34,125 nucleotides of DNA from a virus. Its lineage: Duplodnaviria > Heunggongvirae > Uroviricota > Caudoviricetes. Shown here in pieces: positions 8,239-33,638 of this stretch. Every line of letters starts with the position of its first letter. The stretch's first letter is position 1. Both the position numbers and the translations under genes were made by a program. The stretch covers positions 1 through 34,125 of IMG/VR virus record IMGVR_UViG_2563366806_000008; one strand, written 5' to 3'. The notes beneath the pieces are model-generated. The model saw only the letters and a program-made list of their open reading frames with translations, had not been told where the DNA came from and did no database searches.

Positions 8239-8332
8239 CCGTTTAACTCCGTGGTTAATGGGTGCAACTATTTTCTGTTGGGCAGTGCATAAGACGCTAT
8301 TTGACCTGACTGGTCAGTGGATGAAACAACAG

Positions 8333-8362
8333 ATTAAAGAAAAGGCGGGCAACTCGCCCGCC
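8333..8362 (-). terminator. Intrinsic terminator after the cargo gene, upstream of FI
   Basis: Stem ggcgggc (8344-8350) / gcccgcc (8356-8362); on the minus strand followed by ttttctttaat. Confidence 0.5.
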
Positions 8363-8524
8363 CGTCCTGATTTGTACTCACTCATTTTTCAACTGACAAT
8401 TTACATAGCCCAAAAGCTATCAAATCAGACAGTCTGCTTTGAGCCAAAAGCAGACGTTATGGTATGTCAATCAAACAAGAGGAAGTGACCTGCTCCCCGT
8501 TGTGGGTGTGAACCTCATGGGCAT

Positions 8525-9751
8525 TCAACCTTTCAATGCTTCAATCGTATTATTAAGTCGACGCAACAGGTCGTCGTACGTCAATATGTCTATCATGTTG
8601 GCGTACTTACGTTTGATTATCTCAAAATCAAGCAACTGACCGTCGGTCATGTTACCGTTCGCTATCTGATCGCGTCCGACAATGATGATGGCTTTTGGGT
8701 TAGATATACGAATACACATTCCCGCTGGCAGAGAATTCTTGTAGGCATTCGTAAGCTCTTTTTCACCCTTAACACCCCATTTAGATAAATGAAAAATATA
8801 CTTTTCAGCCTGCATAATACCGCCGCTAAGTTCTGATGTAGGAATATAGTTATCGCGATAGGGCGTCTTGCGAAGGATCTTATCATCAAACGGCTTTTTG
8901 ACTTCGATGATATCAAGGTTGCCGTTTGCATCCACCAGTGCAATGTCTATAAACCGATTTGTTTTAGCCGAAGGATTAGAGTAATAGTCGAAAATTTTAA
9001 CCTTCTCGAGGACCTTGATATATTTTGGAAAAAGTAATGTGATGAAGGGTATCATCAGGCTCTGCCAGTCATCTTCAGACAAGTTAGTTTTGTTATTCAA
9101 CGCATCCTGGATAATGTCTCTTATGAGTGTATATTTCTCAATTTCGAGCTTATTTAAAACTTCTAAATCCAGTTTGTCGGTTTTTCTGATCACTGTTTTT
9201 CTGTTTAGGTAATGTTCATACCGTTCGCGAGCATCTTTCATACCATCAAGATAACCTGCGAGAATAGCGTGAACCCTTGCATTAGCATAGCGATCCAGTT
9301 CCCCTGTGTTGGGGAATTTACTTTGCAACTCCTGGAATACGCTTTTTGGTATAGCTTCCGGCTTATCTCCTCCGATGATGATGGGATTAGTGTGATCGAG
9401 TAGTTTTGAAAGCCGACCAAAAATGGAGACGTTGCGTTCTGACGCAAATACTTTCCTTTCAAGCTTGATGGACTTATGTATAAGGACATCTCGATTAATG
9501 CTTAGAATCCGTCCCGGAACTGTTATGTATTCATTATTAAGCGTGCCAAAATTAAAGGAATATTCGTAATCATTAAAATCCTGAACGGTTGACGGTGGGT
9601 TTCTCAAGTCCTGGAGTTGAAAGTTAAAAATTCGTGAAATGCATACTGTTTGAAATTTATTTAAACTCTCCCAAACCCAAATTATTTGTTCTCCGCTGTC
9701 ACCGTCGTAAGTCATAACAACGTCATTTGATACAAAGCTGAACTGTAACAT
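8525..9751 (-). CDS. Cargo protein (408 aa): N-terminal domain of unknown function plus C-terminal PD-(D/E)xK / RecB-like nuclease domain; candidate anti-phage effector, possibly Shedu (DUF4263)-like
   Basis: AT-rich ORF in the G/FI slot with good RBS (agagga) before ATG at 9751; motifs FIDIALVD (D269/D274), IIEVKK (E283-x-K285) and QAEKY (Q314-xxx-Y318) match nuclease motifs I, II, III. Confidence 0.6.
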   Translation of the reverse strand: MLQFSFVSNDVVMTYDGDSGEQIIWVWESLNKFQTVCISRIFNFQLQDLRNPPSTVQDFNDYEYSFNFGTLNNEYITVPGRILSINRDVLIHKSIKLERKVFASERNVSIFGRLSKLLDHTNPIIIGGDKPEAIPKSVFQELQSKFPNTGELDRYANARVHAILAGYLDGMKDARERYEHYLNRKTVIRKTDKLDLEVLNKLEIEKYTLIRDIIQDALNNKTNLSEDDWQSLMIPFITLLFPKYIKVLEKVKIFDYYSNPSAKTNRFIDIALVDANGNLDIIEVKKPFDDKILRKTPYRDNYIPTSELSGGIMQAEKYIFHLSKWGVKGEKELTNAYKNSLPAGMCIRISNPKAIIIVGRDQIANGNMTDGQLLDFEIIKRKYANMIDILTYDDLLRRLNNTIEALKG

Positions 9752-10041
9752 ATTTCCTCTGATTGATAAAACGTCCCATATTTTCCTGATAATTGCATTA
9801 GAGATCCGGCATGAACTGATGCCCGCCTATAATGACTAACTCTGCAATCACTGTCTCGATATTATGTTCATCCCTCATTTTATCCAAGTTATAAAATAGC
9901 AATCACGTAGATAATGACCTGCTCCCAGCAAACTAACATAGCACGATGTAAGCAAGTTCCGCTTTTGGTACAGAGCAGACTGTCAGATTAAGTTTTACTC
10001 TGTGCCATAGATACGTTAGCTCACTCCAGATATCATACAAC

Positions 10042-10569
10042 TTATTGCGGTATTTCCGGCCATTCAGGATTTGCAGGATCCACACGGCTGACCAGAACGC
10101 TGTAGCGTTCCCATGACTCCAGTCGTGCGCGCTCCTCATCCGTCGCCATATTCAGCCTGACGGTGCGTTCCAGCGGCTGGATAACGCTTTCCGCTTCGGA
10201 AAGTAACGCGGCCTTTTGTGATTCGGCCTGTTGTTGCTGTTCGTCTGCCGTATAAATCCGCTTAATCACGGCACCATCCTTAAACATCCATTTACCTGAG
10301 TCATCAGCACGTCGGTTGGCGGTAATATCAGGAACCTCGACAACGCTAAAACCTTCAGGGTTAAGCGTTGAAGCATCTCTGGTGATGCCGACAATTATAT
10401 TATTCTCGTCGTAAACAATCTTTATCGTGTCCTCCTGAAAATTACTTACTTCCTCATACCAGTTTTTTCCCTCTTCGGACCATAACCAGATAACATCAAA
10501 ATTTTTTGTCAGTTGATATTGGGCAACAGTTTTTGGATTACCCGCAATAATATTTTTTAAATGCTGCAT
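10042..10569 (-). CDS. G: Tail fibre assembly chaperone G (175 aa)
   Basis: Immediately downstream of H; 175 aa as in P2 gpG. Confidence 0.8.
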
Positions 10570-10572
10570 AAA

Positions 10573-12501
10573 TTACACCTGTGCGACGTTATACCATGTT
10601 CCATTGATGTATTTTTGTATTGGTCTGAATACTGCGGGGTCATCACCATCGACTTCACCGACAATACCAAGCCCGGTAATTACGTGCCCTGCTTTCTCAT
10701 ACATCACACCTTTTTGCATAGTCTGAACAACACGTGTGCCCAGGCGAATATCTCGTACATAGCGAGAATCCGATTCATCTTTGGTATATGCACCAACATC
10801 TCCCGCAGAGGGTTTGCGGGTTGTGGTGTAAAACTCTGACCAGTCAGCCTCAAATCCATAACCATCACGCGCTGAACGATAATAAATACCGCCGTTCTTA
10901 TAATTCACACGGAACTGTACGGCAGGGCAACTCCCCTCGCTCATATTGAAATGGAGGATTAATGTCGATGCGCCACCAATATTTGCTTGATAGACCCCGC
11001 TATTCCAGTTCCAGCCAACAGCTTTATCATTTCCGACAGTGCTTCCTGTTTTCCCTAAAGCAAATGCAGGCTGCTGGTTTTTCGTGTTGTAGTCTCGTCG
11101 CCAGCCAGGAGCATAAGCATCACCATGATTAATATAAGTGAATTGAGCGTTAGTGGTGCCGCCTCCGGTGGAAGTGCTTGGTGTTGTTACACGGATGGTC
11201 ATGGCACCTTTATTACCCATAACCTCAATAACGCAACCTGCAAGATGAATAGTTCCACAGCCAGTATCGGTAATAATTTTATTATTGCCGTATGACCATG
11301 AACATTTGCACATCCAGTACGGATGATTAAATGCACCACGGGAATCCAGCCATTCAATAAACTGAGCGGTTGTCCAGTTTCCGGCTTCAGTGCTCAAAGC
11401 GCCGCTATAAGCACGACAGGCACCGATATTTTTCGTGAAGGTATCCTTTCCCGGAATATCCGCACCGTTCTGATCTTTCTGAAGACGTTTTTCAGCATTG
11501 TCATAGGCAGACTTCACTGCTTTTGGTGTTGCGGCCAGCGTTTCAGAATCACTGTTGGTGGCGCTACTGAGCTGGACAAGGCCTTTTCGCGCCGTGGTGG
11601 CATCCTGCGCAGTGTATTTCCCGTTAGCAAGGTCATACGCTGTCTTAACCGCCTTTGGCGTTGCTGCAAGCGTTTCAGAATCGCTGTTGGTGGCGCTACT
11701 GAGCTGGACAAGACCTTTTCGCGCTGTGGTGGCGTCCTGTGCAGTGTATTTCCCGTTAGCAAGGTCATATGCTGCCTTTACCGCTTTTGGTGTTGCGGCG
11801 AGCGTTTCAGACGTGCTGTTGGTGGCGCTACTGAGCTGGACAAGGCCTTTTCGCGCTGTGGTGGCATCCTGCGCAGTGTATTTCCCGTTAGCAAGATCAT
11901 ACGCGGCCTTTACCGCTTTCGGCGTTGCGGCCAGTGTTTCAGACGTGCTGTTGATCGCACTGCTTAACTGAGTAAAACCTTTTGCGGTCAGCGAGGCGTC
12001 CGGGTGACGTCGTGACTGTTCATGCTCTGCAATTTTGTCATCAACGTAATCCTGCGTCGCCATCACCGTTGTGGTGTCAATGGTCAGCGCCACTGAGGCC
12101 ACACTGCTGACGATGATGACCATGCGACAGGTCTGCGAACGCCCTGAGCCTTCGGCAAGAGCTGGCTTATAACTTTCGGCCATGTTCGCCACGGCAATTA
12201 ATGTTCCCGCATCATCGTACAGGCCAAGCTCACGCATCCAGAAACCGCCCACCTCCGGCGGAATAACCAGCTCTGCGATAATATAATTACTGTTTCGTTT
12301 GTCCTGGCTGATTTTGTTCAGCGCATGTCGCCAGACTTCATGGATAAGCCCGGTCTGTCCGGCATCCGGGACAGGCAATTTACCACCGCCATCCCCGACG
12401 GCCATCGTGGTAATGTTGACCTTCCGCCCTCCAGGCGCGGTTGCCGCTGCCAGCTTTGCTGCACCGGCAGTGGTGATAACGGTTCTGAATTTTGTGCTCA
12501 T
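10573..12501 (-). CDS. H: Tail fibre protein H (642 aa)
   Basis: N-terminus MSTKFRTVITTAGAAKLAAA... typical of P2-type fibres; internal SETLAATPKAVK fibre repeats; variable C-terminal part. Confidence 0.85.
   Translation of the reverse strand: MSTKFRTVITTAGAAKLAAATAPGGRKVNITTMAVGDGGGKLPVPDAGQTGLIHEVWRHALNKISQDKRNSNYIIAELVIPPEVGGFWMRELGLYDDAGTLIAVANMAESYKPALAEGSGRSQTCRMVIIVSSVASVALTIDTTTVMATQDYVDDKIAEHEQSRRHPDASLTAKGFTQLSSAINSTSETLAATPKAVKAAYDLANGKYTAQDATTARKGLVQLSSATNSTSETLAATPKAVKAAYDLANGKYTAQDATTARKGLVQLSSATNSDSETLAATPKAVKTAYDLANGKYTAQDATTARKGLVQLSSATNSDSETLAATPKAVKSAYDNAEKRLQKDQNGADIPGKDTFTKNIGACRAYSGALSTEAGNWTTAQFIEWLDSRGAFNHPYWMCKCSWSYGNNKIITDTGCGTIHLAGCVIEVMGNKGAMTIRVTTPSTSTGGGTTNAQFTYINHGDAYAPGWRRDYNTKNQQPAFALGKTGSTVGNDKAVGWNWNSGVYQANIGGASTLILHFNMSEGSCPAVQFRVNYKNGGIYYRSARDGYGFEADWSEFYTTTRKPSAGDVGAYTKDESDSRYVRDIRLGTRVVQTMQKGVMYEKAGHVITGLGIVGEVDGDDPAVFRPIQKYINGTWYNVAQV
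11497..11982 (-). repeat. In-frame tandem repeats within H: about 3.7 copies of a 132-bp (44-aa) unit KGLVQLSSATNS(T/D)SETLAATPKAVKAAYDLANGKYTAQDATTAR
   Basis: Read directly from the H translation (residues about 174-335) and the near-identical DNA units starting near 11521, 11653, 11785, 11917. Confidence 0.8.
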
Positions 12502-12511
12502 TATTCCTCAC

Positions 12512-13042
12512 TTATCCGGGGTAAACCGTAATTACATCGCCGTCGTAAGCCACACCACCGGCGAACAGGTAGCCGGGAATGTCCCGGGTAATGTTCAGGC
12601 CAATAAGGTGACGGCTTGCAGGTTTGGCATCAGCAATCAGCCGTTCCATTTCCTGATACATTGCCTCTGTGATGCCACTTTCCAGTACACCAATATCAAG
12701 CCGGAAGGTGCCCGGCGGGTCACTGGTTTCCCACCACTCCGTCACGTTGATGAGATAGCCCAGCGGCTCCACCACACGCCGGATTGCACCTATCGTGCCC
12801 TTATGACAGTGGATGAAATAGGCATCGCGGATAACGGCGCGTTTTGTCGCTTCCGGCCACTTTTCATCCCACCTGTCGACCGAAAACGCCCACGCCAGCC
12901 ACGGCAGCAGATTTGCCGGACAGGTGTCCGGGTTCCACAGTTCACGAATACTGACCGGCGTTTTTTCAATTTCCGCACAGGCTTTTGCGGCGGCGACTTC
13001 AAGCGGTGATGAGCCGGTCGGCAGCAGGCGCGAATCACTCAT
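12512..13042 (-). CDS. I: Baseplate assembly protein I (176 aa)
   Basis: Synteny J-I-H; 176 aa as in P2. Confidence 0.8.
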   Translation of the reverse strand: MSDSRLLPTGSSPLEVAAAKACAEIEKTPVSIRELWNPDTCPANLLPWLAWAFSVDRWDEKWPEATKRAVIRDAYFIHCHKGTIGAIRRVVEPLGYLINVTEWWETSDPPGTFRLDIGVLESGITEAMYQEMERLIADAKPASRHLIGLNITRDIPGYLFAGGVAYDGDVITVYPG

Positions 13043-13943
13043 CCGAGCCTCCGGTCACGACGCGGTATTCGGTGCAGAAAGACGCCTGCGTACTGTTGAG
13101 CACAATGTCGGCCAGTGGTGCAGCCAGCTCGACACGCTGCACGCCTTCCACATGCAAAGCGGCATAAATAGCAGACAGACGGATGTCGCGCCCCAGCCGG
13201 TGCTGTGCCGTGATGTACGCTTCCAGTTTTTTCACGGCAGCAGCGCGGATGGGTTCGCTTTCGGGACCAGGGTAAAGGTAAAGCGTGGCGTTTATCTGGT
13301 ATTCAACGATGGCGGCAGACTGCACGGTCACGCGGTCGGCCACCGGCCTGACGTCCTCACCATTCAGGGCGTTGCGCACCACCGCCAGCAGGTCTTCGGA
13401 TGCGACACCGTTATTTTCGCGAGACAGCACGGAGATAGTGACGCAGGCCGGAGACGGACTGGTGACAGAGATATCCGCGACACGCCCGTCGGCACTGCGA
13501 CCATGATACTGATAGGCTCCCACCGACCCGGCGACGCTTAAGCCCTCAAACGCCTGCTGAATACGCAGACGATAATCGGTGTCAGACTCCATCACTGCCG
13601 GTGTCGGCGGGATGGTCGAATCATCTGCCGGGGTGATAGTCAGGCGCGTGGTGTTGTAATTGGCACCAATCACATCAAGGTCATTACCGGCGGCACAGGC
13701 CAGCATCACCGCCCGCGCAGCCTCATTCACACGCTGACGCCAGATAAGCTCACGATAAGCATTTTCCTCCAGCAGTTTGACGAGAGGCTCAGATTCCAGC
13801 GTCAGGGTACGGGCGACCGCCTCCTGCTGGTCTTCCGGGTAAAGGGAAATCAGTGTCGCCTTGCGTTCAGCGAGAATGATTTCAAAGTCCAGCTCCTCGA
13901 CCACATCCGGTGCGGGTAGCTGGTTCAGGTCGATAATCGGCAT
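13035..13943 (-). CDS. J: Baseplate protein J (302 aa)
   Basis: Synteny W-J-I; 302 aa as in P2. Confidence 0.8.
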   Translation of the reverse strand: MPIIDLNQLPAPDVVEELDFEIILAERKATLISLYPEDQQEAVARTLTLESEPLVKLLEENAYRELIWRQRVNEAARAVMLACAAGNDLDVIGANYNTTRLTITPADDSTIPPTPAVMESDTDYRLRIQQAFEGLSVAGSVGAYQYHGRSADGRVADISVTSPSPACVTISVLSRENNGVASEDLLAVVRNALNGEDVRPVADRVTVQSAAIVEYQINATLYLYPGPESEPIRAAAVKKLEAYITAQHRLGRDIRLSAIYAALHVEGVQRVELAAPLADIVLNSTQASFCTEYRVVTGGSDE

Positions 13944-13947
13944 GGTT

Positions 13948-14295
13948 TCAACTCACAGGGATGGTTAACGAAAGTGGCTGGCCGGTATCGTTGTGCTGGC
14001 CGGTTAACGTGACCGTCATTCGCCCGTCAAAGCTGCGCGCCGTGGTGACGGATGACAGGGTGACGCGGGGTTCCCATTTCAGCACCGCCATGTAACAGGC
14101 GACCTTAATCTGCAACTCAAGCGCCGGGGTCTGCGGCTGGTCAATCATTGATGCCAGCAACGAGCCGTAATCACGACGCATCACCCGTGAGCCGACCGGT
14201 GTACGCAGGATATCGCCGATACTCTGGCTGATATGCTCAAGGTCAGTGACAGTCAGGCCATCACTGCGATTCATTCCGAGATAACGCGCTGTCAT
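13948..14295 (-). CDS. W: Baseplate wedge protein W (115 aa)
   Basis: Synteny V-W-J; 115 aa as in P2. Confidence 0.8.
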   Translation of the reverse strand: MTARYLGMNRSDGLTVTDLEHISQSIGDILRTPVGSRVMRRDYGSLLASMIDQPQTPALELQIKVACYMAVLKWEPRVTLSSVTTARSFDGRMTVTLTGQHNDTGQPLSLTIPVS

Positions 14296-14927
14296 AAAGG
14301 ACTCCCGGTTGTGCCGCCGCTGTCGCCGGGGTGTTTATGGGTATGCAGTACCTTACCGTTTGATGAGAGTTCACCGCCGGTATGTTCAATGTTGCCGCGC
14401 ATCGTCCCGCCCTTCTGCACTTCCAGCGTGCCGGTAATCAGCCTGTTGGTGCAGACCACCTCCGGTGTGTCCAGGGTGACGCGGGTTGATGCTTTCACCA
14501 TGACCACCGGCACCGTGGCAGTAACAGAATCAGAGGCCGTCACGCTGGCCGTTTTAATTCCGCTTACCGTAAGTGCACTGGTTTCGGGTTCATATTCAAT
14601 CACCGCCCCGTCAGGGAAACGGATATGCAGGGCATCCGCCGACGCAGACGGCGCGGGGTTATCGCCGGAATAAATCCCCGGCAGAACGAACGCCGTGTCG
14701 AGTTCACCGCCCACGGCCAGAATCAGCACCTGTTCCCCCACGGAAGGTGCCCACCATGTGCGCGAACGCCCGGCGCGATGGGTCAGCCACTGAAGCCAGT
14801 CGGTGCACATGCCGCCGGTCTGCACACGGCAGCGACCGGCGTTAAGGTCGGTTTCGACGACAATGCCGGTGCGTATCATGTTGCGCAGTGCGCGCGCGAG
14901 TTCCTGAATATTTGATAATGTGCTCAT
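14292..14927 (-). CDS. V: Baseplate spike/hub protein V (211 aa)
   Basis: Trimmed to Met giving MSTLSNIQELARALRNMIRTG...; 211 aa as in P2 gpV; the longer ORF (to 14996) would run into the divergent promoter region. Confidence 0.8.
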   Translation of the reverse strand: MSTLSNIQELARALRNMIRTGIVVETDLNAGRCRVQTGGMCTDWLQWLTHRAGRSRTWWAPSVGEQVLILAVGGELDTAFVLPGIYSGDNPAPSASADALHIRFPDGAVIEYEPETSALTVSGIKTASVTASDSVTATVPVVMVKASTRVTLDTPEVVCTNRLITGTLEVQKGGTMRGNIEHTGGELSSNGKVLHTHKHPGDSGGTTGSPL

Positions 14928-14973
14928 ACGGCAATAATGAGAGATATATACTCGATAAACCATTACAACCCGT

Positions 14974-14991
14974 TGTATCATTTTTGGCACA
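14974..14991. promoter_or_regulatory. Perfect TGT-N12-ACA dyad (Ogr-type late promoter box) upstream of V
   Basis: tgtatcatttttggcaca; palindromic dyad centred about 55 bp upstream of the V ATG; P2 late promoters carry this dyad near -55. Confidence 0.35.
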
Positions 14992-15010
14992 ATCAAGAAG
15001 GAACTGAAGT

Positions 15011-15754
15011 ATGGATAAATATCAAATCTGGGAAAATCAAAAAGACACCATCGCCCACCAAGAGTATTTAAAAATCTCCGACACCAATTTACTTGGACAT
15101 ATGCATATTGCCAATTACGAAGTTGTCCAACATGAATTAAGCAAATTCAACTCCCCTGACATTGTTTCCCGTCATTCATTTAACAGAGACAAATTTAAAA
15201 AAGAACATTTAAACATATCAAGACACCTTTTCAATTATATATCTTCAGCATTATCATTTAGAGATTCAACGCGCAACCTACTTAAAACAAAAGCATTAAA
15301 TATTGCCGACATTAAAATCAAATCAGAGGCATTCATCAATCATGAATTCCGAAATAATCCAGTAATAAAATTAATGGAGGATTTAAGAAACATCCTGACG
15401 CATCAAAACATGATCGCCCCATCAATATCATCATTCATGCACCTCCAAAGAAATATAAACATGCACGGCTTTTCATTTAAGATTGAAAGAATCTTAAACA
15501 ATGACAGAACCACCAAACAAACAAAAGAATATTTAATCTCACTAAAGCAAAAAAACTTATTCATTTTACCGATAATAGAAGAATACCAATACACGACTCT
15601 TAAGTATCAACACTGGCTTTTAGCAAGTATCTACACTGTTCATCAAGATACTTACCAAGAATACTGGAATGCGAGAAAAAACATCATGAACGAATGGGGA
15701 GGAGACACTCAGCTAATACCTAAAGAGAGTGAGCTCACTTATTTAACCAGATAA
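15011..15754 (+). CDS. Cargo ORF of unknown function (247 aa), opposite strand to the late operons; candidate accessory/defence gene
   Basis: Strongly AT-rich ORF with RBS aagaagga before the ATG; Asn/Lys/Ile-rich; occupies the S/V junction (P2 orf30 position) on the opposite strand; contains R126-x4-H131 (RNILTH). Confidence 0.6.
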   Translation: MDKYQIWENQKDTIAHQEYLKISDTNLLGHMHIANYEVVQHELSKFNSPDIVSRHSFNRDKFKKEHLNISRHLFNYISSALSFRDSTRNLLKTKALNIADIKIKSEAFINHEFRNNPVIKLMEDLRNILTHQNMIAPSISSFMHLQRNINMHGFSFKIERILNNDRTTKQTKEYLISLKQKNLFILPIIEEYQYTTLKYQHWLLASIYTVHQDTYQEYWNARKNIMNEWGGDTQLIPKESELTYLTR

Positions 15755-15775
15755 CAACCTGGTCAGTTCGCAAAC

Positions 15776-15808
15776 GGAAAAAACTGGCCGCGACATTTTA
15801 TCGCGGCC
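15776..15808 (-). terminator. Intrinsic terminator of the head/lysis late transcript (after S); the same hairpin may also end the plus-strand cargo ORF
   Basis: Stem ggccgcg (15786-15792) / cgcggcc (15802-15808); on the minus strand followed by agttttttcc. Confidence 0.55.
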
Positions 15809-15958
15809 TTAAACATTCAAACGATCACCATTGATGAATCCTTATGCCCCAATCGACTGTATATTTTCAAGTGGCAATTAAAACTTATCCGACGAAAATA
15901 CAAAGAGTGTTATACAACAATCAACAACTCAGCAATAAAGCGTAAAAAAATTGCACAA

Positions 15959-16411
15959 CTAACGATCGAGGTGAGCCAGGATAATCTCTTCAATCATCTG
16001 CACATCCTTACCGGTAAAGCCGAGCAAAGGACGCGCCGGATAATCAATTTTCTTACCGTCTTTCCGGGTTTCTTCCGACAGACCAAACTGATGCACGCTG
16101 GCGATTTTCGGTGACTTCCCGCCGTAAAATTCCATTGATGCCTGTTCCGGGCTGGCGCGGATATGCAAAAAACGACTGGTGATAAGTTTCGCAAACATTT
16201 TTCGCTTAACGCGACCGGTCTTTTTTCTGGCGCTCTGCTGCTGGCGTGGCGCGTAGGGTGTGCCGTCCGGGGCTTTCTGTGCCATCACCCGACGCTGCTG
16301 ACTCTGCCGCAGACGTTTCGCCAGTTCGGCACTCAGTCGCCGACGCCCTGACGGTGACAGCGATTCAATAAGTCCGGCCAGCCGGTCTTCAAAACGCTTA
16401 AACTCATTCAT
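15959..16411 (-). CDS. S: Tail completion protein S (150 aa)
   Basis: Synteny R-S; 150 aa as in P2. Confidence 0.8.
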   Translation of the reverse strand: MNEFKRFEDRLAGLIESLSPSGRRRLSAELAKRLRQSQQRRVMAQKAPDGTPYAPRQQQSARKKTGRVKRKMFAKLITSRFLHIRASPEQASMEFYGGKSPKIASVHQFGLSEETRKDGKKIDYPARPLLGFTGKDVQMIEEIILAHLDR

Positions 16412-17817: not shown

Positions 17818-17831
17818 GGTGTTTACTCCGT

Positions 17832-18329: not shown

Positions 18330-18610
18330 TACGGTTTCCCCCTGCCCTTAAAGCGGCGCTGAATGGCAATCTCAATCACCTGATAACCGGCGATACCCAG
18401 CATGGAGCCGATGCCGCACACCGCAGGCAATGACAGGTCAGGAAACTGCACCAGAACAACACCGGCAACCATCGAGACAAAACCACCGAGCAACATGCGC
18501 CCGATAAACAGACGCGGGGTGATGGGTTCACCACCGGCAAGCACCTTGCCGACAACAATCAGCACCCCAATCATGAAAAGCGACAGGACGCTTTTTTCTT
18601 CTGCTGTCAT
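18329..18610 (-). CDS. Y: Holin Y (93 aa)
   Basis: Small protein with hydrophobic transmembrane segments immediately upstream of the endolysin; 93 aa as in P2. Confidence 0.8.
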   Translation of the reverse strand: MTAEEKSVLSLFMIGVLIVVGKVLAGGEPITPRLFIGRMLLGGFVSMVAGVVLVQFPDLSLPAVCGIGSMLGIAGYQVIEIAIQRRFKGRGKP

Positions 18611-18613
18611 GCG

Positions 18614-18817
18614 TTACTCCCACAGATTGACAGTTTCAGCCACGGGCGCGGTCTGAACGTCGGGCAGTTCGACGGCGGTGCCGTGCGGCAGCACCGCGCC
18701 CAGTTCAGCCAGTCCCGGATTTGCGGCGAGCACGGTCTCAACCACGCCCTCAGTGCGCCCGTAATACCGGACACAAATGGCGTCGAGCGTGTCGCCCTGT
18801 AGCGCAAAGGTCTTCAT
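18614..18817 (-). CDS. X: Tail protein X (67 aa)
   Basis: Trimmed to Met giving MKTFALQGDTLDAICVRYYG...; 67 aa as in P2 gpX. Confidence 0.7.
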   Translation of the reverse strand: MKTFALQGDTLDAICVRYYGRTEGVVETVLAANPGLAELGAVLPHGTAVELPDVQTAPVAETVNLWE

Positions 18818-19326
18818 CAGATTTGACTCACGATGCAGCGCGGCTTGTCCTGGATGCGCGCCACCGCCCAGCGCATATCCCGCCACAGCTCATCAATGGT
18901 GCTGTCAATGCTGTCAGCCTTCTTGTCGCCTTTCGCACTGGCATCCACGCCGCGATAACGCTCATACAGCGACGCGGTCGCCATCGCACACACGGCGCGC
19001 TCGTAGTAAAAAACCCTGATGCTTTCACCGTCGATGTCGTCCGCCGGGACGTCCGCCAGACGCGTAAAACCGGCGGCAATTTTCTGTTCGCGGTACTCGT
19101 ACAGCTCCGCATTTGTTTCCGCCATGCCTGACTTGATGGCCTCACGCAGACGGGCGGGGGCGACAGTCTGCTCAAGGCGCATACGTTCCCGGACGCGCTT
19201 CGGGTCGATATCGGGAAAAAAGAACGTGTTTTTAATCACCGGCTCGTCGCCTGCCGGTTGCGGGATGACCACCGTACCCTCACCGGACACGGGAGCCTCC
19301 TTTCGCGGAATAATCAGCGTCATCAT
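18817..19326 (-). CDS. L: Head completion protein L (169 aa)
   Basis: Trimmed to MMTLIIPRKEAP...; 169 aa as in P2 gpL; synteny M-L-X. Confidence 0.75.
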   Translation of the reverse strand: MMTLIIPRKEAPVSGEGTVVIPQPAGDEPVIKNTFFFPDIDPKRVRERMRLEQTVAPARLREAIKSGMAETNAELYEYREQKIAAGFTRLADVPADDIDGESIRVFYYERAVCAMATASLYERYRGVDASAKGDKKADSIDSTIDELWRDMRWAVARIQDKPRCIVSQI

Positions 19327-19425
19327 GACTACCTCTGAAAAGTCGGGCGGTGGACGCCGGTGCAGTGTCAGATGATTCACCCTCACTGACCGGCGTGCCG
19401 CCCTGGCGCGGGGCGCATTCGGTTG

Positions 19426-20169
19426 TTAACTGGCTTTCTTTTTCGGGCGTCCACGTTTTGCCGGTGTCACGCTCCGGGTCTTACGCGGGGTACGGGTGGC
19501 CGCTTTTGGCTGCGGCTCCGGCTTCGGTTTCAGCTCCCGCTCCAGTCGTTCAATCTCTTTTTTGACGCCTGCCTGACAGTCGAGCTGTGTCGCACGTTGC
19601 AGGTGCGCCAGCGCACCGGCGGCATCACCACCGTCACGCAGAAACAGACCGGTGATTTTGTGCAGCTTTGCGCGCACTTCATCAGGCATGTCAGCAGCGG
19701 CAGTCAGTTCAAGGGTCTCCGTCAGCAGGCGGGTATCCACAGACTCACCGGCAGCGTGGGCACGCATGGCCGCAAGCGCGACCTCCTCGGTGAACATGTA
19801 CGGCGGGGTGCGGCGGTGTTTACCCGGCATGGTCAGACCGTACTTCAGGGCATAACGGGCAATCTCCAGCGCACCGGCAATATCGCCGGTATCCAGACGC
19901 CACAGCATGACCGTCATCAGAATGTCATCCTGTGCACCTTTGCCCTGCTCCAGCACGCCGTTCACCCACGGCAACCAGAACGGCAGCAGTTCGCGTTTTT
20001 TCGCGGCCTTCAGCTCTTTTGAATAAATCGCTTTCAGTGTGCGCTGGTCTGCGGCGAGCTTAACCAGCATCTGCTCATAGACAGTTGCATGTCGCAGCGG
20101 GGCGGCTTCCCGCTGCGCGGTCATCGCTGCCGAGACCCGCATCATGTGGCGCTGTGCGGGACTCGTCAT
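19426..20169 (-). CDS. M: Terminase endonuclease (small) subunit M (247 aa)
   Basis: Synteny N-M-L; 247 aa as in P2; basic C-terminal tail. Confidence 0.8.
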   Translation of the reverse strand: MTSPAQRHMMRVSAAMTAQREAAPLRHATVYEQMLVKLAADQRTLKAIYSKELKAAKKRELLPFWLPWVNGVLEQGKGAQDDILMTVMLWRLDTGDIAGALEIARYALKYGLTMPGKHRRTPPYMFTEEVALAAMRAHAAGESVDTRLLTETLELTAAADMPDEVRAKLHKITGLFLRDGGDAAGALAHLQRATQLDCQAGVKKEIERLERELKPKPEPQPKAATRTPRKTRSVTPAKRGRPKKKAS

Positions 20170-20172
20170 CGG

Positions 20173-21246
20173 TTACGCTCCCGGCTCTGCGGTCGCTTTA
20201 GCCGGTGTGGAGAAGTCACCGACCTTGATTTTTTCCACCAGACAACCGGCGGCGTAGTCTTCCACCACGTAATCAATGTTCATTGACTCGTAGTTCTCCA
20301 CGCGGTCGAGTTTCGGGTTTTCCACAATCACGCGGCGATGGCTGTCATCCATGTAGTAGATGGACAGGTTTTCCAGCTTCGTGATGAGCATCGCATCCGC
20401 CGGGAAGTACGGGACGCGTACCGCCGGCAGGTTACCGATGCGTTTCTGGCTGATGATGACGTCAGCGGCCAGCATCTCGCTGTTGTCCTGCTCCTTGTTG
20501 ACGATGGGGAAATACTTGTCCGCCAGTAGCTGACGCCCCACAATCACCACAAGGTCAGGGTCTTCCTGATACCACGGCTCAATCAGGTTGTTGGTCGCAT
20601 CCATCACCAGTGCATCGAGGCTGGCATAATCACCGCCCTTACCCACGCGGATGACCTCAGAGGTCGTGTGACCTTCCTCGTCAGTAACCTTGCTCATCAC
20701 GCGCGCCGGGGCTTCATTGCGGTATTTCTGCAGCCAGCCGACCGCCACATCCTGCAGCATCTGGTTACTGCTGCGGTCAGAGGTTTCGGCACGCCTCACG
20801 CCGTTAAAACCGGCCATGATTAAATCAAGGGACTGGCGTTTGATAATGGCGTTACGGACACGGAGCTGGAAATCCTGATAACGCGCCCACAGGTCAAGCG
20901 TTTTGTAGCGGATATAAAAATCGAAGTTAATCTGGTCGCATTCGTACTTGTTTGACGCCAGCTTCGAGAAGTCCTTCGGCTGACGCTCGGTGCCACCGGC
21001 GGTGTCTGTGGTGCTGGCGATGGAGCCGGTGACACCAATACCAATTTTTTCCCCTTTCATTTCGCTGACCGGCACAATGTTGATGCGGGTCAGAAAGTCA
21101 GAGGACTCCTGCATGGTGTTCATCAGGGTCTGGGTGACCGACGGTTCAACGGTGAATTTTTTCGACACATCACCGGCGTCGATGCCGTTCAGTTCGGCAA
21201 CACGGGACAGGTAGGCATTAAATTTAAAGCGGGTTTCCTGGCGCAT
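20173..21246 (-). CDS. N: Major capsid protein N (357 aa)
   Basis: Synteny O-N-M; 357 aa as in P2 gpN. Confidence 0.85.
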   Translation of the reverse strand: MRQETRFKFNAYLSRVAELNGIDAGDVSKKFTVEPSVTQTLMNTMQESSDFLTRINIVPVSEMKGEKIGIGVTGSIASTTDTAGGTERQPKDFSKLASNKYECDQINFDFYIRYKTLDLWARYQDFQLRVRNAIIKRQSLDLIMAGFNGVRRAETSDRSSNQMLQDVAVGWLQKYRNEAPARVMSKVTDEEGHTTSEVIRVGKGGDYASLDALVMDATNNLIEPWYQEDPDLVVIVGRQLLADKYFPIVNKEQDNSEMLAADVIISQKRIGNLPAVRVPYFPADAMLITKLENLSIYYMDDSHRRVIVENPKLDRVENYESMNIDYVVEDYAAGCLVEKIKVGDFSTPAKATAEPGA

Positions 21247-21304
21247 AGTTTTTCCTGAAATTAAGGGTTAATCGTGAAGGTTTTCCCGGACTGGCTGACG
21301 CCGG

Positions 21305-22159
21305 TCAGCAGTTCGTCATCAGGGCGTCACCGCCACCGCCGGTGGCCTTGCTGCGGCGCTGCTGGGTCAGACTTTCGGTGTGGTCGAGACTGTTTTTCAG
21401 GCGGCTGAATGCCTGGCTGGTTTCATCCGCCCTGTCAGTCACCTCCTGCTTAAGTGCGGAAAAGGCGGTTTCCATCTCAGCGAGTCGCTGCTCAGTGGCG
21501 CTCAGCTTTTCCTGCACATGTTCAGCAACAGCGGTCACCGCTTCATGCACGTCATTCAGACGGGCGTCATCGCTGGCCTGTTTGCGGCCAAAAATGGATT
21601 TCACCTTTTCGGTCAGGGCGGTGAACACGGTTTCAGGCAGGTCTTCAAATTCCAGCTCAACAGGCGTTGCCACTGAAATCAGGTTTTCAGGGCTTAATTT
21701 GAAGCGGTTCAGGGGGTTGTGTTTTGCCGTGCGGCAGAATTCCAGGTATTCCGTGCCGAGGCTTGCCGGGTCATCGGTGACGGCCAGACCCACCAGATAA
21801 CATTTGCCGGTGTTGGCAAAGTTCGGCTGAATTTCCATTGAGGTGTAGACCTTCTGCGCGGCCTTGTTCATCGCGATAAGGTCATCGGTCGGGGTGATTT
21901 TCGCAAACAGCGCCCATTTGCCTTTCAGCGCCGAATCGTCATCAATCTTTTCGGCCTTCAGTTCGGCCACATCGCCATAACGTTTAAAAATACCGTCAGG
22001 CAGGATGCCGCGCAGATGTTCCAGGTTAATGCGGCAACCGTAGACACGCGGGTCAAAGGTTTCGGCCATTTCCTGAATATCCTGCGCACTGATGACACGC
22101 CCGTCACAGGTGTCACCCTCAACGCCGATACGAAAGAATTTTGAGACTTTTTTTGCCAT
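21305..22159 (-). CDS. O: Capsid scaffolding protein O (284 aa)
   Basis: Trimmed to MAKKVSKFFRIGVEGDT...; 284 aa as in P2 gpO; divergent from P. Confidence 0.8.
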   Translation of the reverse strand: MAKKVSKFFRIGVEGDTCDGRVISAQDIQEMAETFDPRVYGCRINLEHLRGILPDGIFKRYGDVAELKAEKIDDDSALKGKWALFAKITPTDDLIAMNKAAQKVYTSMEIQPNFANTGKCYLVGLAVTDDPASLGTEYLEFCRTAKHNPLNRFKLSPENLISVATPVELEFEDLPETVFTALTEKVKSIFGRKQASDDARLNDVHEAVTAVAEHVQEKLSATEQRLAEMETAFSALKQEVTDRADETSQAFSRLKNSLDHTESLTQQRRSKATGGGGDALMTNC

Positions 22160-22332
22160 TGTCAGGAGTCCTGAATAGTGATTAGAGGAGTCACATGTCG
22201 GCATCAGTTTCCCGACGATGCGCATCCTCCGCCATCAGTCCCGGATGGCTTATCACTGACACAACAGCACCTTAGCGAATCGCGGGGCGCGACTCAGTAG
22301 CCTTGCCGTGTATTCATCACGGCGAGGTATTC

Positions 22333-24105
22333 ATGACCATCACCACAGACACCACTCTTTTACACGACCCGCGTCGTCAGGCGGCGCTGCTGTACTGGCA
22401 GGGGTTTTCCGTGCCGCAGATTGCCGCCATGTTGCAGATGAAACGCCCGACGGTGCAGAGCTGGAAACAGCGCGACGGCTGGGACAGCGTTGCCCCCATC
22501 AGCCGTGTCGAAATGAGTCTGGAAGCGCGGCTGACCCAGCTCATCATCAAACCGCAGAAAACCGGCGGTGACTTCAAGGAAATTGACCTGCTCGGACGCC
22601 AGATTGAACGACTGGCACGGGTAAACCGCTACAGCCAGACCGGCAACGAGGCAGACCTTAATCCGAACATCGCTAACCGCAACAAAGGCGGGCGGCGCAA
22701 ACCGAAAAAGAATTTTTTCAGTGACGAGGCTATCGAAAAGCTGGAGCAGATTTTCTTTGAGCAGTCTTTCGAATATCAGTTGCACTGGTATCGCGCCGGG
22801 CTTGAGCACCGCATCCGCGATATCCTGAAATCCCGCCAGATTGGCGCGACGTTTTATTTTTCCCGCGAGGCGCTGCTGCGCGCCCTGAAAACCGGTCATA
22901 ACCAGATTTTTCTGTCGGCCAGTAAAACGCAGGCGTATGTGTTCCGCGAATACATCATCGCCTTTGCCCGGCTGGTTGACGTTGACCTGACCGGTGACCC
23001 GATTGTCCTGGGCAATAACGGCGCAAAACTGATTTTTCTCGGCACCAACTCCAACACCGCGCAGAGCCATAACGGCGACCTGTACGTCGACGAGATTTTC
23101 TGGATACCGAATTTTCAGGTACTGCGTAAGGTGGCATCAGGTATGGCCTCACAGAGTCACCTGCGCTCGACCTATTTCTCCACCCCGTCCACGCTGGCGC
23201 ACGACGCCTACCCGTTCTGGTCGGGTGAACTGTTCAACCGGGGACGCGCCAGCGCCGCCGAACGCGTGGAAATCGACGTCAGTCATAACGCTCTTGCCGG
23301 TGGGCTTCTCTGTGCGGACGGTCAGTGGCGGCAGATTGTCACCATTGAGGACGCCCTGAAAGGTGGCTGCACGCTGTTCGACATTGAGCAGCTTAAACGC
23401 GAAAACAGCGCCGACGATTTTAAAAACCTGTTCATGTGTGAATTTGTTGACGACAAGGCGTCGGTGTTCCCGTTCGAGGAGCTGCAACGCTGCATGGTCG
23501 ACACGCTGGAAGAATGGGAAGACTATGCGCCGTTTGCCGCGAATCCGTTCGGCTCCCGCCCGGTCTGGATTGGTTACGACCCGTCACACCGTGGCGACAG
23601 TGCCGGATGCGTGGTGCTGGCACCGCCGGTGGTGGCCGGTGGCAAATTCAGAATACTTGAGCGTCACCAGTGGAAAGGCATGGACTTTGCCACCCAGGCT
23701 GAATCCATCCGCAAACTCACCGAAAAATACAACGTCGAATACATCGGTATTGATGCCACCGGCCTCGGTGTCGGCGTGTTCCAGCTCGTTCGCTCGTTCT
23801 ATCCCGCCGCACGCGATATCCGCTACACGCCGGAAATGAAAACCGCAATGGTGCTCAAGGCAAAAGACGTTATTCGCCGTGGCTGTCTGGAATATGACGT
23901 CAGCGCCACCGACATCACCAGCTCGTTTATGGCTATCCGCAAGACCATGACCAGCAGCGGACGCAGCGCCACCTATGAGGCCAGCCGCAGCGAGGAAGCC
24001 AGCCACGCCGACCTCGCCTGGGCGACCATGCACGCCCTGTTAAATGAGCCACTCACCGCCGGTATCAGCACCCCGCTGACATCCACCATTCTGGAGTTTT
24101 ACTGA
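22333..24105 (+). CDS. P: Terminase ATPase (large) subunit P (590 aa)
   Basis: Trimmed to MTITTDTTLLHD...; 590 aa as in P2 gpP; followed directly by portal gene Q. Confidence 0.85.
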   Translation: MTITTDTTLLHDPRRQAALLYWQGFSVPQIAAMLQMKRPTVQSWKQRDGWDSVAPISRVEMSLEARLTQLIIKPQKTGGDFKEIDLLGRQIERLARVNRYSQTGNEADLNPNIANRNKGGRRKPKKNFFSDEAIEKLEQIFFEQSFEYQLHWYRAGLEHRIRDILKSRQIGATFYFSREALLRALKTGHNQIFLSASKTQAYVFREYIIAFARLVDVDLTGDPIVLGNNGAKLIFLGTNSNTAQSHNGDLYVDEIFWIPNFQVLRKVASGMASQSHLRSTYFSTPSTLAHDAYPFWSGELFNRGRASAAERVEIDVSHNALAGGLLCADGQWRQIVTIEDALKGGCTLFDIEQLKRENSADDFKNLFMCEFVDDKASVFPFEELQRCMVDTLEEWEDYAPFAANPFGSRPVWIGYDPSHRGDSAGCVVLAPPVVAGGKFRILERHQWKGMDFATQAESIRKLTEKYNVEYIGIDATGLGVGVFQLVRSFYPAARDIRYTPEMKTAMVLKAKDVIRRGCLEYDVSATDITSSFMAIRKTMTSSGRSATYEASRSEEASHADLAWATMHALLNEPLTAGISTPLTSTILEFY

Positions 24106-25139
24106 TGAGCAAGAAAAAAGGGAAAACACCGCAACCTGCGGCAAAAAAAATGACCGCCAGCGCCCCGAAAATGGAGGCATTCACCTTTGGTGAACCGGTG
24201 CCGGTACTCGACCGCCGTGACATTCTGGATTACGTCGAGTGCATCAGTAACGGCAGATGGTATGAGCCACCGGTCAGCTTTACCGGTCTGGCAAAAAGCC
24301 TGCGTGCTGCCGTACATCACAGCTCACCGATTTACGTCAAACGTAATATTCTGGCTTCAACGTTTATTCCGCACCCGTGGCTTTCCCAGCAGGATTTCAG
24401 CCGCTTTGTGCTGGATTTTCTGGTGTTCGGTAATGCGTTTCTGGAAAAGCGTTACAGCACCACCGGTAAGGTCATCAGACTGGAAACCTCACCGGCAAAA
24501 TATACCCGCCGTGGCGTGGAGGAGGATGTTTACTGGTGGGTGCCGTCCTTCAACGAGCCGACAGCCTTCGCGCCCGGCTCCGTGTTTCACCTGCTGGAGC
24601 CGGATATTAATCAGGAGCTGTACGGCCTGCCGGAATATCTCAGCGCCCTTAATTCTGCCTGGCTGAATGAGTCGGCCACGCTGTTCCGCCGCAAGTATTA
24701 CGAAAACGGCGCTCATGCCGGATATATCATGTACGTCACCGATGCCGTGCAGGATCGCAACGATATCGAAATGCTTCGCGAAAACATGGTCAAGTCGAAA
24801 GGCCGCAACAACTTTAAAAATCTGTTTCTCTATGCCCCGCAGGGGAAAGCCGACGGCATTAAAATTATCCCGCTCAGTGAAGTGGCAACGAAGGACGATT
24901 TTTTTAATATCAAAAAAGCCAGCGCCGCTGACCTGCTGGACGCGCACCGCATCCCCTTTCAGTTGATGGGCGGCAAGCCGGAGAACGTCGGGTCGCTGGG
25001 TGATATTGAGAAAGTGGCAAAGGTCTTTGTCCGCAATGAGCTTATCCCGCTACAGGACAGGATCCGCGAGATAAACGGCTGGCTCGGTCAGGAGGTCATC
25101 CGCTTTAAAAACTACTCACTGGACACTGACAACGGCTGA
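24105..25139 (+). CDS. Q: Portal protein Q (344 aa)
   Basis: 344 aa as in P2 gpQ; last gene before cos. Confidence 0.85.
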   Translation: MSKKKGKTPQPAAKKMTASAPKMEAFTFGEPVPVLDRRDILDYVECISNGRWYEPPVSFTGLAKSLRAAVHHSSPIYVKRNILASTFIPHPWLSQQDFSRFVLDFLVFGNAFLEKRYSTTGKVIRLETSPAKYTRRGVEEDVYWWVPSFNEPTAFAPGSVFHLLEPDINQELYGLPEYLSALNSAWLNESATLFRRKYYENGAHAGYIMYVTDAVQDRNDIEMLRENMVKSKGRNNFKNLFLYAPQGKADGIKIIPLSEVATKDDFFNIKKASAADLLDAHRIPFQLMGGKPENVGSLGDIEKVAKVFVRNELIPLQDRIREINGWLGQEVIRFKNYSLDTDNG

Positions 25140-25308
25140 ACATCGCCGCCTGCGGGCGGCTTTTTTACACCCCGTCATCACGCCCTCACACGCTCACCAC
25201 CGCACAAAACACCCCGCAGACACACCAACGCCCCGGCGCACAATCCAAACGCCGTCACGACGCGCTGAGACGCTGAAAAAATAAAATCAGCACCACCGCC
25301 AGCGCGCA

Positions 25309-25327
25309 GTGCTATCCCCGCCTCGCC
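25309..25327 (-). other. Candidate cos cohesive-end sequence (19 nt)
   Basis: Minus-strand GGCGAGGCGGGGATAGCAC differs at one position from the P2 cos overhang as I recall it (GGCGAGGCGGGGAAAGCAC); lies between Q and the replication side as expected. Confidence 0.55.
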
Positions 25328-25542
25328 TGCCCGCTTTATGGGTCGGTTTTAATGCAGGTGCACGAATACACCGGAGGCGCGCCGGCACTGGTGGCGCTCA
25401 GACGCAACAGGGGAGGAAAACGCATGCAATTGAATGCATTTCTAGGCACACCTAAAAATGAAAAAATGTTATGACAATTAATCATTTTAAACACACTGAT
25501 TAAGGGTAGAATTCTCCTAGTAAAATCATAGAAAAACCGCTA

Positions 25543-26472
25543 TCAAACCAGGCTTTTGCCTTGCTTCATTTTTTTAGATGAGTCTAAAAATTTGAAATTA
25601 TCATTAGATGAAAATATTCTTTCTGCGGTATGCCGAATGACTGAAGTATTGAAGACCGCAGCCTGCTCCTCATTACAACTGAATACACCCTCATGACCAT
25701 CAAACTCGCCCGCCAAAAGAAGGTTTTTTGATACTGGGAACAAAACTAAAGTGTCTTTTACACCAAACCCGGGGGAATAAGGGCCTCGTGCTAATTCAGG
25801 ATTAGTCCACATTAAGCAAACTGGGTTATCTGAAGTTATAAATGACCCTTGCCCATCAGATATGGTCATAAGTGACCAGTTGCGTTGATGCAACAACTTG
25901 GTGATAACAGGTACACATTTCATTTCCATATCTATCATGAACTCTCTGATTACATTGATTTCGAAATTATCCCCATCCACAAAATTTTTAATTTTTTCGT
26001 AAGCGAGATCATATGGCAAAGACTCACCCATTTCTTTCTCATAAGCTAATTTGCAATCGTCCCAACGCTCAGCCGAACTAACTGAGGATTTCATGATAAA
26101 CTTTGCTATTTGTTTCAATGGAGATGATAAATGTTCTCGCTGAGCAGGCGTACGTATTGCCAATAAGGAAATAAACTCCAGAATAACATCTTTGGTTTCG
26201 CCTGAAAACTCGCCCCCCTCCTCAAGTTTTCTTAAATGAGTAGCGACACTGCCTTCAAACTCTGCAAGAGAACTCTCGAGATAGTTTGGGTCAACTCCAT
26301 CCAATTCTAATCGGTTGAAATCTCTAACCCCCCCGACATTGCGAGTATTACTCTCAAAGGTTTTGCGCTCCTTTAAATCTATTACAGTTAATTTTGATTT
26401 TTTCCCCCCATTACTTGTAAACCCTTTCAAATAACATTGGGATAAAAAATGATGATGCCTTGCAACACTCAT
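25543..26472 (-). CDS. DUF4238-type cargo protein (309 aa from Met at 26472); candidate single-gene anti-phage protein
   Basis: AT-rich ORF in the tin/old slot; N-terminal HHFLSQCYLKGF resembles the DUF4238 signature (HH-x-x-P/S-Q-x-YL-x-x-F); RBS ggag before ATG at 26472; ORF extends upstream to 26514. Confidence 0.65.
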   Translation of the reverse strand: MSVARHHHFLSQCYLKGFTSNGGKKSKLTVIDLKERKTFESNTRNVGGVRDFNRLELDGVDPNYLESSLAEFEGSVATHLRKLEEGGEFSGETKDVILEFISLLAIRTPAQREHLSSPLKQIAKFIMKSSVSSAERWDDCKLAYEKEMGESLPYDLAYEKIKNFVDGDNFEINVIREFMIDMEMKCVPVITKLLHQRNWSLMTISDGQGSFITSDNPVCLMWTNPELARGPYSPGFGVKDTLVLFPVSKNLLLAGEFDGHEGVFSCNEEQAAVFNTSVIRHTAERIFSSNDNFKFLDSSKKMKQGKSLV

Positions 26473-26575
26473 ACTCAGCTCCGTTATGGCTATAATCGCA
26501 TAAATAATAAGCACTTATATTGCAATCATCTAGTTAAATACACAATATTTATGACTCCGAAATTTCATTAAATCA

Positions 26576-33611: not shown

Positions 33612-33638
33612 TGACACCCTAAATCTCCCTTACACGGG
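33612..33638. repeat. Prophage attachment core, right copy (int-proximal junction)
   Basis: Exact 27-bp copy of 1507-1533; here followed by one extra T and the inverted repeat gggcttat / ataagccc. Confidence 0.8.

Follow-up and report, generated by a model that had tools for sequence, protein, structure and literature searches.

Three moron regions were described in P2-like phages by Svab et al. (PMC6823313), the TO, S/V and fun(Z) regions of R18C all being filled, and the TO-region, the Z-region and P2 orf30 were likewise named by Lynch et al. 2010 (PMC3091744). Phage P2 (AF063097) itself fills all three, with orf30 at S/V, fun(Z) at G/FI and orf91, tin and old at A/cos, and its cargo has a guanine plus cytosine (G+C) content of 0.33-0.36 against 0.56-0.58 for its late genes. 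Hotspot analyses were directed at gpA-gpQ in Rousset 2022 (PMC9122126) and at old-tin and Z/fun in the iLund4u preprint. Here, a stretch of 34,125 nucleotides (IMG/VR record IMGVR_UViG_2563366806_000008; hereafter the window) was analysed, in which three AT-rich inserts interrupt a P2-like prophage. Since the open reading frame (ORF) map of the window matches the annotated P2 genome in gene order and the homology breakpoints could be mapped, the inserts are identified by sequence comparison as the classical P2 moron loci Z/fun (G-FI), orf30 (S-V) and TO (A-cos/Q). We consider it highly probable that they are the three canonical accessory loci of the P2 family, carrying Shedu, DUF4238 and a predicted HEPN-like protein as cargo. 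Two of these cargo genes are already known; the third, in the S/V slot, is a new candidate found at a locus of a familiar type.

In blastn comparison, homology to P2 was lost at 8459-9953 (Z), 14928-15956 (S/V) and 25357-26613 (TO). An earlier, sequence-only reading of the window had proposed three AT-rich inserts with one gene each, delimited from gene to gene. The inserts are real: sliding G+C shows three deep troughs at the places proposed, and the borders taken from the P2 alignment lie within approximately 30-220 bp of the earlier ones. Segment G+C was 0.399 for Z, 0.345 for S/V and 0.388 for TO. Same-length windows of the D-to-A backbone served as the baseline (mean 0.556-0.558, standard deviation ∼0.03), giving z values of -5.8, -6.8 and -5.8, respectively, while the lowest backbone window did not fall below 0.436. 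The same was found for the cargo ORFs, with a G+C of 0.395 (Z), 0.332 (S/V) and 0.391 (TO) versus 0.560 for the pooled late genes, and a third-codon-position G+C of 0.42, 0.36 and 0.36 versus 0.64. The Jensen-Shannon distance of codon usage to the late backbone was 0.10 for the Z gene sduA, 0.20 for the S/V gene and 0.16 for the TO gene, the late genes themselves ranging from 0.03 to 0.10. The expectation that G+C and codon usage would both set the cargo apart was thus borne out in part: G+C is clearly low in all three and codon usage is outlying for S/V and TO, but the value of sduA merely equals the upper end of the late-gene range. The backbone itself is not uniform in G+C; the early genes B, cox, C and int lie at 0.44-0.46 and the tail-fibre genes G and H are also under the late-gene value. 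Each insert holds one substantial ORF with a putative Shine-Dalgarno sequence 4-8 nt upstream (GAGGAAA for Z, AAGGA for S/V and GGAG for TO), so that the proposal of a single gene per insert with its own translation signal was confirmed. Rfam and tRNA scans gave no match inside the three slots.

The sequence-only reading had further regarded a filled S/V slot beside the other two as unusual, probably because recent hotspot papers stress only two slots. This is contradicted by P2 itself, by the literature cited above and by the occupancy among relatives. A query consisting of 1.9 kb of the V side joined to 1.9 kb of the S side was searched against 5426 complete E. coli genomes, and the S-V locus was present in 1462 of them. 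From the ranking, 60 rows were sampled at even spacing, 52 of which had a match of at least 90% of the query. The slot was filled in 20 of these 52 prophages (∼38%) and empty, with 64-70 bp, in the other 32. Among the filled slots, 13 had the size of the P2 orf30 insert (938 bp), one with an added IS2; the remaining ones measured 1029, 1038 and ∼1255 bp, with three of inexact size, one of which carried a P-loop nucleoside triphosphatase (NTPase) gene. At least four size classes are therefore found among the filled slots. All three slots were filled in each of the four related prophages that were inspected in full (504838, 0-4, SC467 and CD45). Triple occupancy is ordinary for P2-like prophages, and the contents of the slots vary while their flanks stay conserved, as seen in 504838, 0-4, SC467, CD45, PI7, R18C and P2.

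The Z cassette (8459-9953) lies between the tail-fibre assembly gene G and the promoter region of the tail-sheath gene FI; P2 homology extends to 8458 and resumes at 9954. Its gene, sduA (8525-9751, minus strand, 1227 bp, 408 residues), is co-directional with the late genes and is labelled 'Shedu immune nuclease family protein' in RefSeq. The product matches SduA_C (DUF4263, PF14082; a PD-(D/E)xK nuclease domain) in Pfam over residues 224-396 (E 3.1e-33) and the PADLOC SduA profile over its full length (E 9.9e-220). All 407 aligned residues are identical to those of the 'Shedu effector protein' in PDB entries 8ps4 and 8ps5. This protein, EcSduA, was characterized by Loeff et al. (bioRxiv 10.1101/2023.08.10.552762; PDB 8ps4, 8ps5, 8ps6) as a tetrameric PD-(D/E)xK nickase with a DNA-end clamp. 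According to the same preprint, it confers protection from T6, and escapers are mutated in uvsW, which agrees with a suppression of recombination-dependent replication. The Z cassette, with at least 99% identity in every case, was found in 53 of the 5426 complete genomes. It is also 99.6% identical to AJ512677, deposited as 'P2-EC31 proviral Z-region, putative lysogenic conversion protein' without the name Shedu, in which the depositors annotated left and right inverted repeats and a predicted -35/-10 pair. Compared with window positions 8209-10071, AJ512677, a record of the 2004 era, shows a 1-bp indel and an ORF of 1089 bp next to the 1227-bp sduA; judged from the alignment, its ORF is probably a truncated version of sduA. 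The inverted repeat arms are found in the window at 8423-8454 and at 9958-9989, just downstream of G, the first arm (32 nt) being 84% complementary to the second. Both arms form terminator-like hairpins just on the conserved side of the breakpoints, one of them at 8455-8432 on the minus strand.

The TO cassette (25357-26613) is situated between cos and the 3′ end of the replication gene A, P2 homology being absent between 25356 and 26614. It contains the DUF4238 gene (25543-26472, minus strand), which follows A on that strand after 103 bp, and no second ORF of at least 60 residues. Because the profile matches start at residue 15 of a 323-residue ORF opening with GTG, the real start is taken to be the ATG 14 codons inside it, at 26472, giving a protein of 309 residues. 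The match to Pfam DUF4238 (PF14022) spans profile positions 2-280 of 281 (E 5e-39) and that to PADLOC 'DUF4238-Pers' (PDLC03000) positions 1-309 of 309 (E 2e-219); the RefSeq label is 'DUF4238 domain-containing protein'. When a single DUF4238 protein from the gpA-gpQ hotspot was cloned by Rousset et al. (PMC9122126), strong resistance to T7 was obtained. The cassette also exchanges the 3′ end of A (26576-26613): the last 152 nt of P2 A (∼40-50 codons) are replaced, so that the A protein of the window is shorter than that of P2 and has a different C-terminus, and P2 orf91 is absent. The sequenced phage record pro483 has this cassette, replaced end of A included, at 99.3% identity; since the same arrangement occurs in a phage record, the altered C-terminus is suggested not to disable the phage. 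The TO cassette was present in 14 of the 5426 genomes.

The S/V cassette (14928-15956) runs from the start codon of V to 2 nt past the stop codon of S, with P2 homology up to the ATG of V (14927) and again from 15957. Because the non-homology starts at the V start codon, the cassette carries its own version of the V late promoter. Within it, upstream of V, a TGT-N12-ACA dyad was read from the sequence at 14974-14991 (minus strand). Its centre lies 55.5 bp from the ATG of V, a distance equal to that of the annotated activator site of P2 pV, and the dyad is likely the Ogr activator site of the late promoter pV. The cargo gene (15011-15754, plus strand, 247 residues; WP_001471813) is antisense to both flanking late operons. 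The sole sigma-70-like match upstream of its ATG (14952-14981) is at chance level and overlaps the dyad. An intrinsic terminator hairpin is located at 15786-15808 on the minus strand, between S and the convergent cargo gene, with its T-run on the late strand; the terminator scan gave GGCCGCGATAAAATGTCGCGGCC followed by AGTTTTTTCC. From its position this is predicted to be the O-operon terminator, as P2 has one annotated at the equivalent place. Strains 504838, 0-4 and SC467 have the cassette at 100% identity, and it occurs in 18 of the 5426 genomes. In the 504838 prophage, the baseplate gene V (19393-20028 of its stretch) is annotated as a pseudogene with an internal stop, a sign that such prophages decay while the cargo is kept.

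A dN/dS of 0.16 against a 76%-identical allele indicates that the S/V ORF is a real gene under purifying selection. Homologues at 76%, 59%, 51% and 35% identity occupy the same slot in the same orientation in increasingly diverged P2-like prophages. An exhaustive profile search retrieved 337 remote homologues (over 330 representatives when clustered at 50%). Most have ∼240 residues, and in some the homologous part forms the N-terminus of proteins of ∼530-720 residues, whose extra regions had no PADLOC match and, in Pfam, only a sub-threshold match to CREPT (E 1.3e-4). An alignment of 86 remote homologues had a mean column identity of 22%. Across these 86, only N75, R126 and H131 are invariant, and N127 is kept in 88%. 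The conserved block reads F-V-x-D-L-R-N-Y-x-L-H (motif DLRNYxLH), in which R126-H131 spell RNxxxH. R-N-x3-H is a form of the Rx4-6H motif of HEPN ribonucleases (RNases), as in Ire1, RNase L and Cas13. AlphaFold2 run on the 86-sequence alignment yielded a mainly helical model with one beta-hairpin insert (residues 138-157) at a predicted local distance difference test (pLDDT) score of 93.5; a model built from 6 close sequences (pLDDT 57) was discarded. The protein itself had no Pfam, NCBIfam or PADLOC match, and in PHROGs only function-unknown families were found. The 86 homologues gave only scattered chance matches in Pfam, NCBIfam and PADLOC, and no mention of WP_001471813 was found in the literature searched.

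On contigs of sufficient length for a judgement, the neighbours of remote family members point to a defence context. An MmeI-type restriction-modification gene lies 23 bp upstream of one member. Other neighbours are a SocA/Panacea antitoxin, an SNase and an Eco57I-type methyltransferase; a helicase-nuclease with DUF4011/AAA_12/MTES_1575/DUF3320; and a KAP NTPase, a GIY-YIG protein and a type-I-like restriction-modification fusion. Two other candidate relationships of the S/V protein were ruled out. It is not related to P2 Orf30 (BLASTP E 0.74; hhalign probability 0.2%), nor to the 246-residue S/V ORF of R18C, whose strand with respect to S and V is the other one; when the S/V protein was searched by tblastn against the whole collection of phages, no match was obtained. 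Other cargo of the slot includes a hypothetical gene of 357 residues without a Pfam match (PI7 stretch 2009-3082 and CD45 stretch 20232-21305), and the R18C ORF (ORF16) had only a sub-threshold Pfam match to HNH_5 (E 0.0096). None of the four distinct S/V cargo genes examined (Orf30, the 247-residue and 357-residue genes and R18C ORF16) has a significant Pfam match, and the slot seems to hold only uncharacterised genes.

On the strength of the motif, the family alignment and the model, the chances that the S/V protein is enzymatically a stand-alone HEPN-like RNase are put at about even. The joint statement that it is such an RNase and serves in defence, as an abortive-infection or toxin-type effector, is considered less likely and is put forward tentatively. 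In the proposed mechanism, the 247-residue protein would be a metal-independent HEPN RNase, expressed opposite the silent late operons and acting as an abortive-infection or toxin-like effector. SduA would act as a tetrameric nickase, an activity known experimentally for the identical protein, and the DUF4238 protein would provide a single-protein defence, a hotspot family member being protective against T7. Together, the three cargo genes would offer stacked defences to the lysogen, and hence to the prophage, against different competitors. The sequence-only reading had suggested that the inserts benefit the lysogen and could give layered protection. This is reasonable, as SduA is identical to a characterised defence protein and the DUF4238 family has a validated member.

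Several observations weigh against this interpretation. For the S/V protein, a Pfam search with the 86 homologues gave one HEPN match, at chance level (HEPN pEK499_p136, E 0.0057), and the family consensus had no Pfam match. Sequence and profile searches of PDB with the protein returned nothing, and Foldseek of the model against PDB and BFVD found nothing significant. The neighbourhood evidence comes from about six informative contigs, with two further contexts being uninformative. Regarding expression, consensus sigma-70 sites in the three slots were at chance level relative to shuffled sequence, and the DUF4238 gene, situated behind A with no promoter detected, could be silent in a repressed lysogen; the allele tested by Rousset et al. 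(PMC9122126) may also differ from it. Finally, an IS30-type insertion sequence (30356-31576, 1221 bp, with 26-bp terminal inverted repeats and a 383-residue HTH_38 + rve transposase) is present as a complete copy within orf78. Its insertion point, 32 bp upstream of B, separates the early promoter and cox from B-A, and neither P2 nor the sister prophages have the element. The element is likely polar on the early operon and the prophage may be replication-defective owing to it; in that case, the benefit of the cargo, itself unaffected, may now go only to the host.

Two other functions were considered for the S/V gene. It might be an accessory of benefit to the phage, with a role in RNA processing or anti-defence or with P4-type satellites or late transcripts of the phage itself as its target, and would then be kept by P2-like phages for the help it gives them. 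The homologues found in the slot at 76-35% identity look like long residence and co-divergence, unlike the rapid turnover of defence cargo, and a cassette that bears the V late promoter and the O-operon terminator is tightly tied to late-gene control. Nevertheless, ∼62% of the sampled slots are empty and the gene is therefore dispensable. In addition, its orientation antisense to the late operons, like that of P2 orf30, fun(Z), tin and old, fits lysogenic expression, and the remote members are chromosomal, beside restriction-modification, toxin-antitoxin and helicase-nuclease genes, and not in phages. A phage-benefit role is accordingly considered unlikely. Somewhat less unlikely, and still doubtful, is that the protein forms a non-enzymatic helical bundle, for example a sensor, a scaffold or a membrane-active toxin, in which the invariant arginine and histidine of the R-N-x3-H motif would have a structural or ligand-binding role. 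Over both, the HEPN-like RNase is the reading we prefer for the S/V protein. That its gene represents an undescribed family of single-gene HEPN-type RNase anti-phage effectors, and the S-V locus a third, essentially unmined P2 defence hotspot, is put forward as a possibility only.

The history of the three cassettes was judged from prophages sharing some of them. Those with the identical S/V cassette carry other cargo in the Z and TO slots: an RNA-directed DNA polymerase gene in 0-4, a NACHT-domain gene in SC467 and hypothetical genes in 504838. The 0-4 prophage also has a different attachment site and a different integrase. The CD45 prophage, at the same yegQ/yegR site as that of the window, has the same Shedu and DUF4238 cassettes, the different 357-residue S/V gene and no IS30, and pro483 combines the same DUF4238 cassette with an empty S/V slot. 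Cargo thus assorts independently of the backbone. Identity tracks showed the cassettes at 99.4-100% and the adjoining backbone at 95-98%. The S/V cassette lies within a tract of ∼4.5 kb (∼11.5-16 kb) with 98.8-100% identity to 0-4 and SC467, compared with 96.6-98% to CD45. This pattern of identities is the footprint of cassette exchange, for which we infer homologous recombination as the mechanism. The most likely route by which P2-like phages would swap cassettes is homologous recombination within the conserved genes on either side, and the short inverted repeats that flank the Z region may aid the movement of cassettes.

It could alternatively be supposed that the three cassettes were inherited as a set from a fully filled ancestor, the low G+C being due to nothing more than an ancient origin of the cargo. 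All three slots are indeed filled in P2 and in each relative that was inspected, and the Shedu and DUF4238 pair is found at the same spacing in CD45, L725 and GMM060, with CD45 at the same integration site. The presence of this pair in CD45 makes it probable that the lineage of the window inherited the Z and TO cassettes together. The S/V cassette, in contrast, differs between the window prophage and CD45 and lies in a tract near-identical to prophages with unrelated Z and TO cargo. The cassettes are of very unequal frequency (53, 18 and 14 of 5426 for Z, S/V and TO), and they overlap little among the genomes listed, which covered 15 of the 18 with the S/V cargo; the genomes with both Shedu and DUF4238 (CD45, L725 and GMM060) were not among these 15, and the exact combination of Shedu, S/V gene and DUF4238 was not found among the complete RefSeq genomes inspected. 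Inheritance of the full set is possible, though we tend to doubt it, and exchange of cassettes is the preferred explanation. The earlier idea of separately acquired inserts is accordingly retained in modified form: the inserts are single-gene foreign cassettes and that at S/V was swapped, but the Z and TO pair was probably co-inherited, and only the S/V cassette is demonstrably swapped.

Judged from gene content and order, the window represents a complete P2-like (Peduovirus) prophage at the host cyaR/yegQ-yegR site. The host gene yegQ occupies positions 1-1362 and yegR lies beyond the right attachment (att) repeat. An exact repeat of 27-28 bp, one copy at each prophage end, forms the att core (blastn high-scoring pairs at 1507-1534 on the left and at 33622-33648 on the right, adjoining int). 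The small RNA gene cyaR (RyeE; 1445-1530) is intact, matching its Rfam model over the full length (100.7 bits), and as the left core overlaps its 3′ end, the phage would integrate into the end of cyaR and reconstitute it. The late genes on the minus strand follow the P2 order, with ogr, D, U, T, E, FII and FI before the Z slot, G, H, I, J, W and V up to the S/V slot, and then S, R, lysB, lysA, K, Y, X, L, M, N and O. P and Q lie on the plus strand, followed by cos, A, orf83-orf80, B, cox, C and int, the integrase ORF covering 32529-33542. The cos site was located at 25309-25327, at the boundary between Q and the TO region; position 1 of P2 (cosL) aligns at 25327, and cosR of P2 (33593-33546) aligns to 25309-25356. 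Outside the three slots, the middle part of the tape measure gene T (4500-6000) is 76-86% identical to all four sister prophages, in the case of SC467 only to ∼5500, compared with 95-98% otherwise; this patch is a local mosaic. The tail-fibre gene H contains a 132-bp (44-codon) tandem repeat at 11500-12001, with ∼3.4 copies and an 89% match. H and G, with a G+C of 0.51 and 0.46, respectively, are the most divergent structural genes among the relatives.

The three-slot architecture as such is textbook P2 biology and adds nothing new. The window does place the characterised E. coli Shedu natively in a P2-like Z region, in the same prophage as DUF4238, and so offers a test-bed for additive stacked defences. 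The S/V slot has been passed over by recent hotspot-mining papers, which treat TO and Z/fun only, yet it is filled in about two-fifths of E. coli P2-like prophages. A systematic survey of this slot could cheaply give new defence genes, one of its cargo genes having a HEPN signature and defence-island neighbours elsewhere. If the S/V gene does represent a new HEPN effector family, such a family would be resident in the P2 S/V slot over the long term, and in unrelated bacteria its members would have defence genes of the restriction-modification, toxin-antitoxin and helicase types as neighbours.

Compared with known systems, the S/V protein resembles the stand-alone HEPN abortive-infection and toxin proteins (AbiD/F, AbiU2, AbiV and Abi_C; the MNT-HEPN structures 7ae2, 5yep and 8xdj) in the R-N-x3-H motif with its invariant residues, in a predicted fold that is mainly helical, and in its small size and single-gene coding, either within a mobile element or with restriction-modification and toxin-antitoxin genes close by. 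It differs from the HEPN families in having no detectable sequence relationship to any of those in Pfam, from the MNT-HEPN toxins in size (247 versus ∼130-150 residues) and in the absence of an MNT or other partner gene from the slot, and from HEPN toxins in the beta-hairpin insert (138-157) and the extra C-terminal helices of the model. The loci themselves are like those of P2 in position, in low G+C (0.35-0.40 here), in variable, non-essential content and in flanks that each retain a late promoter or terminator, and, like orf30, the S/V cargo runs antisense to the late operons. All three cargo genes, in contrast, are unrelated to those of P2; sduA has the direction of the late genes and fun(Z) of P2 the opposite one, and the TO slot has a single gene within 1.26 kb, where P2 has orf91, tin and old in 3.4 kb. 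The DUF4238 gene shares with the system of Rousset et al. the hotspot, the single-gene organization and the full-length domain. SduA, finally, is like EcSduA a single-gene system and is identical in sequence, including W25, whose mutation abolished defence (bioRxiv 10.1101/2023.08.10.552762); the protein is no different, and what the window adds is its native setting, the Z region of a P2-like prophage.

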